A stretch of DNA of 64,000 nt from Octopus sinensis (Eukaryota), in assembly GCF_006345805.1 (NCBI RefSeq), contig NC_043004.1:102734001-102798000 (forward strand), given 5' to 3'. The position numbers and the translations under genes are program-made. Below, piece after piece: positions 24,771 through 36,724 of this stretch. The notes beneath the pieces are model-generated. The model did not search any database. It was not told where the DNA came from and saw nothing but the letters and a program-made list of their open reading frames with translations. Each line of letters begins with the position of its first letter. The first letter of the stretch is position 1.

Positions 24771-27436
24771 TTTGTGGTACCAGTGCCGGTGGCACACAAG
24801 AAAACCACCCAAACGTGGCCGTAACCAGTACCGCATCGACTGGCCTCCGTGCTGTGGGCACAACAAACACCATCCAATCGTGGCCGTTCGCCAGCCTCAT
24901 CTGGCACCTGTGCCGGTGGCACATAAAGACACCATCCGAAGACCCGGCGACGTAGTCAGTCCACCTGTGCATACCTTCCCTCTTATGACACTTGTGAAGA
25001 CCTGTTGAGGCAAGTGTGGGACACTTGTGAAGACCTGTTGAGGCAGAGGCAAGTGTGTGACACTTGTGGAGACCTGTTGAGGCAAGTGTGTGACCCTTGT
25101 GAAGACCTGTTGAGGCAAGTGAAAATCAAATCAAACCATATCAAAATAGATGAATATCAATGGAATTTGTATCTTTGTGGTTCCAGTACCGGTGGCACAC
25201 AAGAAAACCATCCGAGCGTGGCCGTAGCTGGTACCGCATCGACTGGCCTCCGTGCTGTGGGCACAACAAACACCATCTGATCGTGGCCGTTCGCCAGCCT
25301 CACCTGGCACCTGTGTCGGTGGCACATAAAAACACCATCCAAAGACCCGGCGACGTAGTCAGTCCACCTGTGCATACCTTCCCTCTTACGACACTTGTGA
25401 AGACCTGTTGAGGCAGAGGCAAGTGTGTGACACTTTGTGAAGACCTGTTGAGGCAGAGGCAAGTGTGTAACACTTGTGGAGACCTGTTGAGGCAAGTGTG
25501 TGACACGCGTGACACTTGTGAAGACCTGTTGAGGCAAGTGAAAATCAAACCAAATCAAAATAGATGAACATCAATGGAATTTGTATCTTTGTGGTTCCAG
25601 TACCGGTGGCACACAAGAAAACCATCCGATCGTGGCCGTTCGCCAGCCCATCTGGCACCTGTGTCGGTGGCACATAAAGACACCATCCGAAGACCCGGCG
25701 ACGTAGACAGTCCACCTGTGCATACCTTCCTTCTTGTGACACTTGTGAAGACCTGTTGAGGCAAGTGAAAATCAAATCAAATCAAATCAAGTCAAAACAA
25801 ATCAAAATAGATGAACATCAGTGGAATTGTATTCTTTGTGGTACCAGTGCCGGTGGCACACAAGAAAACCACCCAAACGTGGCCGTAACCAGTACCGCAT
25901 CGACTGGCCTCCGTGCTGTGGGCACAACAAACACCATCCGATCGTGGCCGTTCGCCAGCCTCATCTGGCACCTGTGCCGGTGGCACATAAAGACACCATC
26001 CGAAGACCCGGCGACGTAGTCAGTCCACCTGTGCATACCTTCCCTCTTATGACACTTGTGAAGACCTGTTGAGGCAAGTGTGTGACACTTGTGAAGACCT
26101 GTTGAGGCAGAGGCAAGTGTGTGACACTTGTGGAGACCTGTTGAGGCAAGTGTGTGACCCTTGTGAAGACCTGTTGAGGCAAGTGAAAATCAAACCAAAT
26201 CAAAATAGATGAATATCAATGGAATTTGTATCTTTGTGGTTCCAGTACCGGTGGCACACAAGAAAACCATCCGAGCGTGGCCGTAGCTGGTACCGCATCG
26301 ACTGGCCTCCGTGCTGTGGCACAACAAACACCATCTGATCGTGGCCGTTCGCCAGCCTCACCTGGCACCTGTGTCGGTGGCACATAAAAACACCATCCAA
26401 AGACCCGGCGACGTAGTCAGTCCACCTGTGCATACCTTCCCTCTTACGACACTTGTGAAGACCTGTTGAGGCAGAGGCAAGTGTGTGACACTTGTGAAGA
26501 CCTGTTGAGGCAGAGGCAAGTGTGTAACACTTGTGGAGACCTGTTGAGGCAAGTGTGTGACACGCGTGACACTTGTGAAGACCTGTTGAGGCAAGTGAAA
26601 ATCAAACCAAATCAAAATAGATGAACATCAATGGAATTTGTATCTTTGTGGTTCCAGTACCGGTGGCACACAAGAAAACCATCCGATCGTGGCCGTTCGC
26701 CAGCCACATCTGGCACCTGTGTCGGTGGCACATAAAGACAACCATCCGAAGACCCGGCGACGTAGACAGTCCACCTGTGCATACCTTCCTTCTTGTGACA
26801 CTTGTGAAGACCTGTTGAGGCAAGTGAAAATCAAATCAAATCAAATCAAGTCAAAACAAATCAAAATAGATGAACATAAATGGAATTTGTATCTTTGTGG
26901 TACCAGTGCCGGTGGCACACAAGAAAATCATCCGAACGTGGCCGTAGCCAGTACCGCATAGACTGGCCTCCGTGCTTTGGGGACATAACAAACACCATCC
27001 GATCGTGGCCGTCCGCCAGCCTCATCTGGCACCTGTGTCGGTGGCACATAAAAACACCATCCGAGCGTGGCCGTCTGCCAGCCTCGTCTGGCACCTGCCA
27101 GCCTCATCTGGCACCTGTGTCGGTGGCACATAAAAACACCATCCGAGCGTGGCCGTCTGCCAGCCTCGTCTGGCACCTGTGTCGGTGGCACATAAAAACA
27201 CCATCCGAGCGTGGCCGTTCGCCAGCCTCGTCTGGCACCTGTGTCGGTGGCACATAAAATCACCCACTACACTCTCGGAGTGGTTGGCGTTAGGAAGGGC
27301 ATCCAGCTGTAGAAACACTGCCAGATCTGACTGGCCTGGTGCAGCCTTCGGGCTCCCCAGACCCCAGTTGAACCGTCCAACCCATGCTAGCATGGAAAAC
27401 GGACGCTAAATGATGATGATGATGATGATGATGATG
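24771..27436 (+). repeat. Higher-order tandem array of an RTE LINE 3' UTR
   Basis: Junction GACCCGGCGACGTAG at 24941, 25344, 25692, 26005, 26402 and 26751 (every third junction ~1.06 kb apart); only the last unit has the LINE terminus and (TGA)n; matches the single copy at 57160-57611. Confidence 0.92.
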
Positions 27437-32420: not shown

Positions 32421-34125
32421 GCTAGCATGGAAGACGGATGTTAAATGATAATGATGATTAATATAAGGTAGCCCTAACATTTTAGTTCAAAAGAAATTGT
32501 TTTGTGCTTGTCTGATCCAAGAATTTGTGTTTGACAAGGACGTTTGGCAAAAGATTTCTAGGCTTGTATCTTCTTTTTGTTTTTGTTTTTTTTGACAAGC
32601 ATGGAAAAGCGGATGTTAAAACAACATCAATGATGATGAATGAGAGATACACATCTGCATGTTACAAATCTTCCTTATCCCTAAATTAATATTTCTTTGT
32701 CAGAAAAACATAAAAAGTGGTTTCAACAAGACAGTGCTCCACCACATTTTACAATTTATATGAGGATTTATTTAAATATATACCTTTCCAGGAATGTGGA
32801 TTATGAGAGACAGACCAGTTGAATGGCCATGTAGAGTTTTCAGAACAAACACCAAGTCTGTATGAATCAACTCAGAACTATAAATGCAACTAAAACAGCC
32901 AATCCTATCCATTAGTGATAGTTGTAAATATGAAACCTGCCTAATTCTTTCATGTCATAGTGACCACCATCATCATTTAATGTCTATGTTTCAAGTTGGC
33001 ATGGGTTGGACAGTTTGACAAGGACTCTATTATGCTCCAGTGTCTGCTTTGGCATGATTTCTATAGCTGGACGCCTTTCCTAGTGCCAATCACTTTACTG
33101 GGTGCTGTTATCATGCAGCCGGAACTATTTAAGAAGACTTTGCAGCTTGCAAGACTATGAACCATGAGGAGAATGGGAAGAGTCGTTAAGTACAAGACAT
33201 TGGGAGAAGCAGAGCATGTTCTTGTAGAAGAGCTAATCTTAATTACAAAGAGGAAAACTTAGTTTGACATTTTTTTTTAACTCTTCTTCTCTTTACACAT
33301 TATAAAACAACAAGAGTGTAATATTAAACAAAAGCAAAAGACATAAGTATTGGTTGAAGGGTAATTCAAATACTTAAGTGGTAATAAATAGGTGATGTGT
33401 CAACTGTTGTAGTAACAAGTAAAGAAAAAGCAAATAAGTAGATAGTGCCAACACTCTATACTAATAGACTTGCATCTATTTTTCCACAGCAGCATGAAAC
33501 TTTTTGTTAAGATAGATAATTTACATGTGAAAATATCAATTAGTTGAGTTAGATGACACCTCTCGCATCATTTTTGTATTTGGGTACAAAAACCTCAACA
33601 TTTACCTGGAAGTTTTAGTTGCAGTTAGGAAAAACTGGGGGAGGTGGGAGATAAACAGGACATTTTTTTATTTTTCAATGACTTAGAAGAGGAACAGGAA
33701 GGCCTTAGAGGAGACAAACCTACAACTCATGGGTCATACTCATACCTGAGATCTGTTTTGATTGCTTTAGCAGAGTAGACACTCCACTAGCCACCCAAGA
33801 GCTAGGTGATGGTCCAGGAATGTGGACAAGTAAATCTAATGACACAGTTTTCAGTAACATGAATGAAAGTGTTAACAAGAATGGCAATTTACCAAGTTGA
33901 CTCGCAGATGGTAGGTTAACAGTATAGCAAACTGATAATACAGTCGTAGCCATAAGTTTGGAACACGTTTTTTTTTTAATTTTTAAAATTACAGGAAGTC
34001 ACATGACCTGCATCAAACATAACTAAAAATGTTTATAGATACCCACCATATTACTGTCAGTAGTAATAATATATAGCAAATTTAATATAACTTTGGGCAT
34101 TTAATACAAAAATTCTAATTTTCAG

Positions 34126-34280
34126 ATCTATGTTCGATAGGTAATGATGGTGGTTGCAGGAAGAAAGAAGAAGAAGAATGACCCATCATCAACAGCATTG
34201 TTATGGATGACAAGGGTGAGGTTTTGGCTGTGACAGCTGATTGTAATCTTGTTTGTATCTGGAAGGTCTGCACAGATTGA
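34126..34280 (+). pseudogene. WD40-like C-terminal exon fragment (LRWD1/EED-like) with in-frame TGA, inside the TIR element
   Basis: CTAATTTTCAG acceptor, then xLCSIGNDGGCRKKEEEE*PIINSIVMDDKGEVLAVTADCNLVCIWKVCTD*; the part after the first stop fits a WD40 blade ending in WK. Confidence 0.5.
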
Positions 34281-34369
34281 AAGACGGACTGTGGTGTGTG
34301 TGAGTGTAACTGTACATACATGTGTGTGTTTATGAGGGAGTTCACATAGATATATACATATATATATAA

Positions 34370-34598
34370 AACATTTGAGCGAGGTCGTTGCCAGTACTGC
34401 CTGACTGGCCCCCATGCTGGTGGTACGTAAAAGCACCCACTACACCCTCGGAGTGGTTGGCGTTAGGAAGGGTATCCAGCTGTAGAAACTCTGCCAGATC
34501 AAGATTGGAGCCTGGTGCAACCATCTGCTTTGCCAGTCCTCAGTCAAATCGTCCAACCAATGCTAGCATGGAAAGCGGATGTTAAACGATGATGATAA
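34370..34598 (+). mobile_element. Family B RTE 3' fragment nested in the TIR element
   Basis: GGTGGTACGTAAAAGCACCCACTACAC...GTTAAACGATGATGAT. Confidence 0.85.
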
Positions 34599-34715
34599 TG
34601 TTCCTACCTTTTGGCCATGACTGTACACGACTAGTACTTAGTGCTTTATATGCCATCAAGGTAAAAGATATGTTAAATATATTCTGGGATTCTAGCAGCA
34701 TAATTTATGTCTGGG

Positions 34716-35082
34716 AGGCGTAGACATGGCTAAGTGGTTAAGAAGCTCACTTTGCAACCACATGGTTTTGGGTTCAGTCCCACTGTATGGCATCTTGGGC
34801 AAGTGTCTTTCACTATAGCTCCAGGTCAACCAATGCCTTGTGAGAGAATTCAGTAGACAGAAATTGTGTGGAGGCCCATCATATGTATACATATATCTAT
34901 GTTGCATGTGTCTGTGAGTCTCTATCATCACCACTTGACAAGTGCTGCTGTGTCCCCATAACTTAGAAGTTTGGCAACAGACTAAATATAAGTACTGGCA
35001 TTGATTATTCAACTAAAACTCTACAAGGCACTGTTCCAGCATGACTGCAATCTAATGACTGAACTAAGGTAAAAGGTAAAAA
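34716..35082 (+). mobile_element. Older family A-related SINE
   Basis: TGGCTAAGTGGTTAAG A box, GGTTCAGTCCC B box, core block, (GGTAAAA)n tail. Confidence 0.8.
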
Positions 35083-35772
35083 TAACTCCTTTAAGATGGG
35101 AAATCCTGACAAGGCTATATATATTCTTTTTACCAGAGACTAAATAATTTAAGAACTGAACCAGAGACTACATGGTTGGAAAGCAAGCTTCTTAACTCAC
35201 AGCCATGCTTTCTCAGATAAGACTCAAACTTGAAAATGAAATGCTAGACTTGGAAACAGCCAAACTAGAGCAGAAAACTTAGTTCTAAAAAATGCAAGCA
35301 TTTATAATCAGGATATCCTTGTAAATACTACTGTAGTTACAAACAAGAATATGAAACAGAAAGCTATTTCAGTAATTACTTCGCACAAGTATTTTTTTCC
35401 TTTCTTCCTTTTAGAGATGCTAGTGGTGATATAAGCATGACTGTAGAAAATGACCAGCAAGAGATGCCATATATCACCAGTATAAGACAAAGCTAATTTT
35501 CTTGTGTGTGCAAATCACATAATGAACTCAGAGATCCAATAAGAAATAATAAGCCTCTCACCAAGACATTAGTAACATATTCAATTTTGTAAGATGTTCA
35601 TATTTATTGGAACTCCTTGTCACATATATTCAATATTGTTAGTCACCAATCACTCAATGCAATACCAACATCTTTATCAAAACAGACATTGCTAATTTGG
35701 CTTAGACCATTAACTCTTTTGATACCAACCCACCTGAGACTGCCTCTGGTTTTGTGATACAAATTCACTGTT

Positions 35773-36047
35773 GTTGCCAGCCTCGCCTGGATCCGTGCCG
35801 GTGGCACAAAAAGCACCATCCGTCCGTGGCCGTTTGCCAGCTCCGTCTGGCACCTGTGCGGGTGGCACGTAAAAAGCACCCACTACACTCACGGAGTTGG
35901 CGTTAGGAAGGGCATCCAGCCATAGAAACACTGCCAGATCTGACTGGGCCTGATGCAGCCTTCTGGCTTCACAGACCCCAGTTGAACCGTCCAACCCATG
36001 CTAGCATGGAAAGCGGACGCTAAATGATGATGATGATGAAGATGATG
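35773..36047 (+). mobile_element. Family B RTE 3' fragment
   Basis: Two ~60-bp subrepeats, terminal block, (TGA)n. Confidence 0.85.
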
Positions 36048-36170
36048 AAACTTTAAAATTCCCATCAAAATTTCATGATTAATTTAATAAATTCTCCATT
36101 GGTTTCAGAATTAATTGAAACAAAGCCAGTGTATTTCAACAGAAATATGATAAAAAAAGGGTTAAATGGT

Positions 36171-36724
36171 TTAACCCTTTAACATTTAAGCTGGGCATAT
36201 CTGACAAAAATAATCTACCTGTATTATCTTCAAACTGGCCAAATCTAGCTTCTCACACTTACCCCACAATATTATTCTAGAACTAAACAATCACATCATT
36301 GAATTCTCAGAGTTACAAGGTAATGCATGACTAATCTGCCTGACTGGAAACCATTGCCGGTGGCATGTAAAAAGCACCATTTGAGCATGGCTGATGGTAG
36401 TGCTACCTGACTGGCACTTGTGCCAGTGACATGTAAAAAGCACCATTTGAGCGTGGTCGATGCCAGTGCCACCTGGCTGGCTCCCGTGCCGGTGGCACAT
36501 AAAAAACACCCACTACACTCTTGGGGTGGTTGGCATTAGGAAGGGCATCCAGCTGTAGAAATCTTGCCAAATCAGATTGGAGCCTGGTACAGCCTCCCAG
36601 CCTGCAAGTTCTCAGTCAAACTGTCCAATCCATGCCAGCATGGAAAGCAGATGGTAAATGACAACGATGATGTGATTAAATAAGTATTACATTTGATAGA
36701 GAAATCTGAATGCTAAAGGCTTAA
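36171..36724. mobile_element. TTAA-flanked MITE interrupted by a family B fragment (~36336-36672)
   Basis: TTAACCCTTT...GCTAAAGGCTTAA termini; same family as 6406-7089 and 62610-62836. Confidence 0.75.

Follow-up and report, generated by a model that had tools for sequence, protein, structure and literature searches.

The window, by which we mean the whole stretch of 64,000 nucleotides of Octopus sinensis DNA analysed here (G000:C8:102734001-102798000), carries at positions 33939-34625 a TA-flanked element with an overall length of 687 bp. The element is delimited by the TA target-site duplications of a MITE, which are assigned to neither strand and can be read directly from the sequence (33939-33940 on the left, with TA flanks found also at other family copies, and 34624-34625 on the right), and by a pair of terminal inverted repeats of 25 bp each. 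The left repeat (33941-33965, + strand) begins CAGTCGTAGCC... and is complementary at 20 of its 25 positions to the right repeat (34599-34623, - strand). A preliminary description of this DNA, made from its letters alone, had noted these TA-flanked repeats and the absence of a transposase between them; the count of 20/25 is the same on re-reading, and an open-frame scan recovers no frame of at least 130 aa overlapping 33939-34625. Termini of the form CAGTC(A/G)TGGCCAAAAGTTTGGAAC with TA flanks delimit elements of 170-807 bp at 9 of the 23 other loci scanned, and because identical termini and flanks recur in this manner, the inverted repeats are beyond chance. Their start, CAGT, is presumably a Tc1-like motif. 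The TA duplication, together with terminal inverted repeats shared among multiple copies, makes the element a member of the Tc1/mariner-type MITEs, with which it also has in common a size of 170-807 bp across the family, the lack of coding capacity and the presence of many copies in the genome.

Comparison of the segment 33939-34375 with the 2.72-Gb genome from which it comes yields matches that fall into two sets meeting at 34135. Numerous genomic loci match the left part, 33939-34135 (275 first-look candidates, 40 of which were scored), and the right part past 34135 has only a handful of matches. In all of the 20 other family copies examined, the sequence ...CTAATTTTCAGACCTATGTTC leads immediately into CAAACTTTTGGCCATGACTGTA, which is none other than the right terminal repeat with its TA and which in each of these copies comes directly after ...AATTCTAATTTTCAGACCTATGTTC; the comparison omits L016 and L020, whose matches stop before 34135, and L028, which overlaps L024. 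Four public runs from other organisms show the same continuation: in each, 26-46 contigs proceed past 34135 with CAAACTTTTGGCCACGACTGTA, the sequence of the right repeat. In the window, the left and interior portion of the MITE (33941-34135, + strand), bounded by the stop of the own-genome matches at 34135, includes at 34115-34125 the "intron-like" stretch CTAATTTTCAG, which the preliminary description took for the end of an intron captured along with an exon. Since 20 of the 20 other copies run from this stretch straight into the right repeat, it belongs to the sequence of a Tc1-like MITE family with many copies. Minus what has been inserted into it, the MITE of the window would be about 225 bp long, next to comparable copies of 221 bp and 239 bp, and would read ...CTATGTTCC(A/T)A(C/A)C...; in some copies of the family there are in addition internal tandem repeats of 74-88 bp. 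The 687-bp element is two things, divided at 34135/34136: an older MITE and a unit inserted in it.

This unit, which comparison with its own genome and with sister copies suggests to be a chimeric retrocopy, spans 462 bp on the + strand (34136-34597) and is composed of an exon piece, a piece of 3'UTR, a microsatellite and the tail of a LINE. It is bracketed by the hexamer ATGTTC, which is present once in uninterrupted copies of the MITE and twice here, immediately before the unit at 34130-34135 and again at 34598-34603, where it shares bases with the beginning of the right repeat (neither copy being assigned a strand). The pair represents an apparent target-site duplication with a length of 0-6 bp, since the first bases of the second ATGTTC may instead close the (GAT)n run with which the unit terminates. 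No MITE bases have been lost at the insertion site relative to the uninterrupted family copies. Within the unit, all on the + strand, lie a copy of the 3'-terminal part of the last coding exon of the LRWD1-like gene, corresponding to about residues 515-568 (34136-34280, from protein searches and alignments), one of the initial ~66 nt of the parental 3'UTR (34281-34346, aligned to the parent and six other copies), a (CA)n(TA)n microsatellite remnant at the junction of UTR and tail (34347-34368, from the sequence and the sister loci) and the LINE tail (34369-34597). The exon fragment, the 3'UTR piece and the LINE tail form a single inserted unit: the tail belongs with the remainder because the junction is identical at three other loci and because ATGTTC brackets the whole of the 462 bp and not either half. 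The preliminary description had seen in the downstream repeat a later RTE insertion; its derivation from a LINE, specifically from the terminal portion of a LINE 3'UTR, stands, and its status as a separate and later arrival does not. ARAGORN found no tRNA gene in 33000-36500.

The coding portion of the insert reads KKEEEE*PIINSIVMDDKGEVLAVTADCNLVCIWKVCTD*, exactly as had been quoted before. From 34137 the frame is open but for a single in-frame TGA at 34179-34181, and its terminal stop at 34278-34280 is the native one of the parental gene. The parental codon at the site of the TGA is CGA, which is both the sense codon expected there and the very codon from which the TGA had been proposed to derive. 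The 32 residues following the TGA are identical at 29 positions to residues 537-568 of the 568-aa LRWD1-like protein of Octopus sinensis, which in turn scores 186.3 bits against the Pfam model PF23215 WD_LRWD1, and hence the resemblance to LRWD1 that had earlier been suggested is borne out; the 32-aa peptide of the window by itself gave no significant Pfam match. The closest named proteins are those of Octopus sinensis and O. bimaculoides, and protein searches with the parental sequence reach the window copy with E values of 1.3e-16 and 6.4e-16, across one TGA.

A search of the protein against the genome places the parental gene at G000:C29:11326195-11334878, with three coding exons and on a contig (C29) other than that of the window (C8). 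Its last exon (L004) contains an open frame of 222 aa, which is 99% identical to the 568-aa LRWD1-like protein and scores 38.1 bits with WD_LRWD1 against a cutoff of 30.7. The window copy has 90.5% ungapped identity to the parent over 210 columns and comprises the last 54 codons and the beginning of the 3'UTR, lying inside the last exon only. These alignments identify the host LRWD1-like gene as the source of the fragment, and they uphold the earlier contention that part of a host gene, from its last exon and 3'UTR, sits within a Tc1-like, TA-flanked non-autonomous element. A parental locus with the matching UTR and with a sense codon in place of the TGA had been predicted and was found; the matching intron that was part of the same prediction is absent, the intron just upstream of the parental last exon ending in ...ctctctttcag, unlike the MITE stretch. 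Lacking a start codon and having just 54 codons interrupted by one TGA, the window copy would have been non-functional ever since its insertion and is best regarded as a dead fragment. At the parental locus, no AATAAA occurs in the ~85 nt that separate the stop codon from the microsatellite, and the microsatellite of the 3'UTR is followed by a tRNA-headed SINE and then by a LINE tail in reverse orientation; no LINE tail in forward orientation was found within 8 kb downstream of the gene. Inversion or twin-priming of the parent's reversed tail is not favoured as the origin of the window tail, since the reversed copy of the parent is longer and different.

The LINE tail of the insert (34369-34597) belongs to a repeat with about 10 copies in the window. 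Of the 29 genomic copies of this tail that were fetched, several reach upstream into a reading frame. One such tail-bearing LINE locus (L079) matches RVT_1 with 103 bits, has a PHD-type finger and yields a weak endonuclease match (E 6e-4), and its relatives are proteins of 1000-1100 aa combining PF03372, PF00078 and PF00628 on contigs of 3.2-4.5 kb. The 3'UTR of the LINE is ~770 nt long, contains tandem units of ~63 nt and ends in (GAT)n; the window tail corresponds to its last ~225 nt, down to a degenerate (GAT)n, and shares 81.7% identity, across 197 nt, with the 3' terminus of a LINE copy that has an RT frame. Hence, the 3' limit of the insert falls at the (GAT)n terminus of the LINE 3'UTR. 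On this evidence the tail is the natural 3' end of an EN+RT(+PHD) LINE, putatively an RTE-like one. Ordinary copies of the tail are variable in the number of repeat units at their 5' side, and no LINE reading frame was found inside the window. The architecture of the LINE seems to fit that of an octopus RTE LINE, RTE-2_OV, which is described in PMC9115989 as an RTE-clade element with an ORF of 1109 aa and UTRs of about 600 nt. Judged by that account, the two share an endonuclease and an RT in one direction, a long 3'UTR and relatives of similar size; they differ in their fingers, the LINE behind the window tail having one of PHD type after the RT and RTE-2_OV being described with a C2H2 finger (PMC9115989).

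A genomic search with 34137-34346 returned eight candidates, all of which were scored: the window itself, the parent and six others, namely L007 (contig C29, 15337080-15337990), L008 (C23), L047 and L002 (both C3), and L003 and L005 (both C18), the last two of which constitute a segmental duplicate pair with 95.8% identity over 3.1 kb. MITE sequence lies beside the gene fragment in none of the seven other genomic copies, the parent included, and conversely the fragment is absent from all 20 of the other MITE copies that were examined. The window copy, L007, L008 and L047 have a common junction of the form UTR-(CA)n(TA)n-AAAAC(A/T)TT(T/C)GAGCG...tail. The 5' ends of the copies differ: L007 starts at the end of exon 2, the window copy at about residue 515, L003/L005 at about residue 538, L008 at about residue 548 and L047 within the UTR, for a total of five different ends. 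No tail of L003/L005 was found within 8 kb, which makes this pair a possible case of the gene fragment without a tail, nor was the remainder of the L008 tail recovered, and no clear target-site duplications could be identified at L007, L047, L008 and L002.

The most informative of these sisters is L007. Its positions 1018-1053 match the end of parental exon 2 at 33 of 36 nt and then pass straight into exon 3; the parental donor reads ...gaacatttgtg/gtaag, and the ~3.9-kb intron that follows it, from C29:11330360 to 11334228, is absent from L007. The one departure from this is a 22-nt deletion between AAAC repeats. Because L007 joins two parental exons with the intron missing, it is a spliced copy, and the chimeric lineage passed through spliced RNA. 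The window copy lies inside one exon, and its own origin from RNA is argued from the junction that it has in common with the spliced L007. The copies are mutually 92-95% identical and about 90% identical to the parent, the window copy in particular showing 94% identity to L003 and L008 over 115-161 nt. Both the copies and the protein of O. bimaculoides end in ...TD and the parent in ...TN, so that at least one of the differences shared by the copies is a change in the parental lineage. L002 stands apart in being 96% identical to the parent and in having the parent's tRNA-headed SINE in place of the tail, with its end at the 3' end of the SINE; it is a younger copy.

Taken together with the intron-bearing parent elsewhere in the genome (three coding exons, C29), the placement of the 3' end at the (GAT)n terminus of the LINE and the five 5' ends among the copies, the insert is very probably a 5'-truncated chimeric retrocopy nested in an older MITE, produced by the agency of a LINE reverse transcriptase and not by transposon capture. 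The attribution to LINE-mediated retroposition follows from the conjunction of a spliced lineage, a LINE 3' end and variable 5' truncation. The preliminary description had instead envisaged a Pack-TIR event, wherein a Tc1-like element took up an intron end, the last exon and the UTR at the DNA level and was hit later by a LINE fragment; a template switch in the course of gap repair would be one way for such an uptake to occur. Host-derived sequence does lie between TA-flanked terminal inverted repeats, and homology to the parent does stop within them, but what was taken for an intron end belongs to the MITE family, as all 20 of the other copies show, and the real parental intron ends in ...ctctctttcag with different sequence upstream. 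Nor does capture look like a property of the element, given that 0 of 20 other MITE copies have the cargo and 0 of 7 other cargo copies have a MITE around them. With the junction of exon, UTR and tail common to three loci outside any MITE and with a spliced sister (L007) at hand, we hold DNA-level capture by a Tc1/mariner element to be extremely improbable. There is a protein homologue, there is a parental locus and the homology does not extend beyond the terminal repeats, these being the three points on which the preliminary description had let capture stand or fall; capture is rejected nonetheless on the grounds just given, the three points not being ones that separate it from nested retroposition.

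Two further scenarios keep the unit apart from the MITE and differ in how it came to be there. One posits filler DNA, with the 462-bp unit copied from another chimeric copy via double-strand-break repair or ectopic conversion, for which a target-site duplication that may be as short as 0 bp and the 94% identity to L003 and L008 over 115-161 nt could be adduced. It is rendered improbable by the exact stop of the unit at the natural 3' terminus of the LINE, by a 5' end unlike that of every other copy and by the loss of zero MITE bases; the limits of the unit conform instead to the pattern of independent 5'-truncated retroposition. The other posits two retro-insertions at one spot, namely a fragment of an LRWD1 processed pseudogene and, subsequently, an unrelated LINE tail. 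LINE tails are certainly abundant, as the approximately 10 within the 64 kb of the window attest. However, the junction is alike down to the base pattern in four loci even as ordinary tails vary in their 5' units, and the ATGTTC pair encloses the whole unit instead of either half, which leaves such a double event with hardly any probability. We accordingly retain the nested chimeric retrocopy as the preferred explanation, and on this view the locus is a nested insertion of ordinary type whose origin is of mild interest.

As regards the mechanism of such a retrocopy, recognition of the tail by the LINE enzyme would have been followed by reverse transcription of the chimeric RNA at a nicked site within the MITE. 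The joining of the mRNA to the tail could have come about along one of three routes. A LINE tail might formerly have been resident in the 3'UTR of the gene, in an ancestral or since lost allele; the reverse transcriptase, having begun on LINE RNA, might have switched to the mRNA as its template; or a first chimeric copy might have served as the master of the others. The source transcript is not observed, as the present parent has no forward tail after its microsatellite.

The closest known kinds of element are processed pseudogenes and LINE-chimeric retrocopies. Chimeras formed through template switching by LINE reverse transcriptases, e.g., U6/L1 or the tripartite pseudogene of Magnaporthe, are described in PMC2104539 and in the review PMC5470649. 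The shared features are an intron-less sister, variable 5' truncation, unlinked loci and the arrangement of a host RNA piece on the 5' side with a LINE end on the 3' side. The octopus insert is distinguished from them by a 3' end consisting of the (GAT)n tail of a non-L1 LINE and not of poly(A), and by a host part that stops in the 3'UTR at a microsatellite and not at a polyadenylation site. Unlike one-off chimeras, it has a junction that recurs at four loci, which implies that a single chimeric source was copied repeatedly.

The comparison with Pack-MULE and Pack-TIR elements rests on the presence of a host gene fragment between terminal inverted repeats. Here, however, the fragment arrived in a nested retro-insertion with a tail of its own, the interior of the MITE is intact and co-linear with the cargo-free copies, and the composite has never transposed, cargo and MITE being separate everywhere else. 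In families of the SVA_F1 or 5'-transduction type, a host exon is fused to a retroposon and propagated with it as a unit. The octopus copies share with this type a host exon fragment and a retroposon 3' module, dispersed copies and a single junction; they differ in that there are 4-5 copies, in that the module is a LINE tail only and in that the lineage is known here from its genomic copies alone. If one chimeric source has been copied four or more times via its tail, the SVA_F1 type would be the closest analogue. We raise, tentatively and with some doubt, the possibility that the LRWD1 fragment and the LINE tail constitute a nascent self-propagating retroposon lineage, in which one source was copied at least four times through recognition of the tail. 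The source might be the spliced copy on contig C29 or an allele of the gene, since lost, whose 3'UTR contained a LINE tail. Were this the case, any host transcript of a cephalopod that gained such a tail could be amplified, and there would be a tail-dependent route both to the dispersal of gene fragments and to new SINE-like families.

Independently of that possibility, the locus documents well, on a small scale, a host mRNA piece that travels together with the tail of a non-L1 LINE, and it offers a concrete test case for the tail-dependent mobilisation of host transcripts by a non-L1 LINE. The analysis also removes a tempting false positive, in that gene capture by an animal Tc1/mariner element would have been notable, and it carries a warning for annotation: where exon-like frames turn up in elements with terminal inverted repeats, the consensus of the repeat family should be checked first. 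A full-text literature search found no paper on octopus retrocopies, the papers retrieved with "octopus" and "retrocop" having been judged by title. LINEs and SINEs are very abundant in genomes of the octopus type, according to PMC13282606.

The divergence of the window copy from the parent amounts to about 9.5%. Read on the O. vulgaris repeat scale of PMC13282606, where a JC distance of 0.09 corresponds to roughly 25 My, this suggests an age of the insert of the order of 10-25 My. In the contigs from the four runs of other organisms, none bridges 34135/34136, such that neither an empty nor a filled orthologous site was seen among them, and cover over 34139-34174 is absent or comes from records resembling the parental gene. 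No RNA run was listed among the public runs with matches. A contig from a more distant organism does contain the unique left flank together with the left half of the MITE (33700-34088, with 22 other letters and 4 gaps, or ~5.7% difference). Given the presence of both on that contig, the MITE is probably older than the split from this more distant organism.

The short 3'UTR of the parental LRWD1-like gene is now directly followed by a ~385-bp tRNA-headed SINE (L048, the gene end with its downstream flank; G000:C29:11334600-11342600). A younger copy of this gene end, 96% identical, occurs on contig 3 (L002, G000:C3:40187494-40190724); it comprises the end of the exon, the UTR and the ~385-bp SINE, and terminates where the SINE has its 3' end. 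Hence, the end of the LRWD1-like gene seems to have been copied twice, with a retroposon tail ending the copy in each case. The last intron of the gene, upstream of the parental last exon (positions 1-990 of L004, the locus with that exon), has two direct repeats of ~400 bp. These contain C2H2-like coding remnants (...CRACGRE...KRHAKVH...) and are probably pieces of another mobile element.

Two other genomic copies of the LRWD1-like fragment, L003 (G000:C18:12409901-12413061) and L005 (G000:C18:12554022-12557185), lie 144 kb apart and share 95.8% identity across ~3.1 kb, indicating a segmental duplication that carried a single copy of the fragment along. At both loci the microsatellite of the fragment is followed, in place of the LINE tail, by a ~190-bp foldback element with inverted ends of its own.

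The LINE supplying that tail, an EN+RT+PHD element, is represented at L079 (G000:C29:15831500-15837500) by two oppositely oriented copies in a 6-kb stretch: in one of them the 5' truncation falls at the YADD motif, and the other has a stop or frameshift between the endonuclease and RT frames. Within the window, an amplified 62-63-nt unit of the LINE 3'UTR has built satellite-like arrays at 24833-27425. One of them is tandemly repeated at a higher-order period of 397 (25792-26696; 2.2 copies, 92% matches); others show a period of 62/82 (27015-27264).

Members of the MITE family reach lengths of up to 807 bp because a subterminal 74-bp segment ending CTAATTTTCAGACCTATGTTC is tandemly repeated in some of them, with two to three copies at a period of ~88 bp (L024/L028, G000:C3:67080242-67083403; L018; L026). 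Directly to the right of the MITE in the window (34716-34980 and 35155-35196) is a SINE-like repeat whose head resembles a tRNA, with no tRNA gene called there by ARAGORN; a 42-nt arm recurs in inverted orientation 376 nt away, with 79% complementarity.
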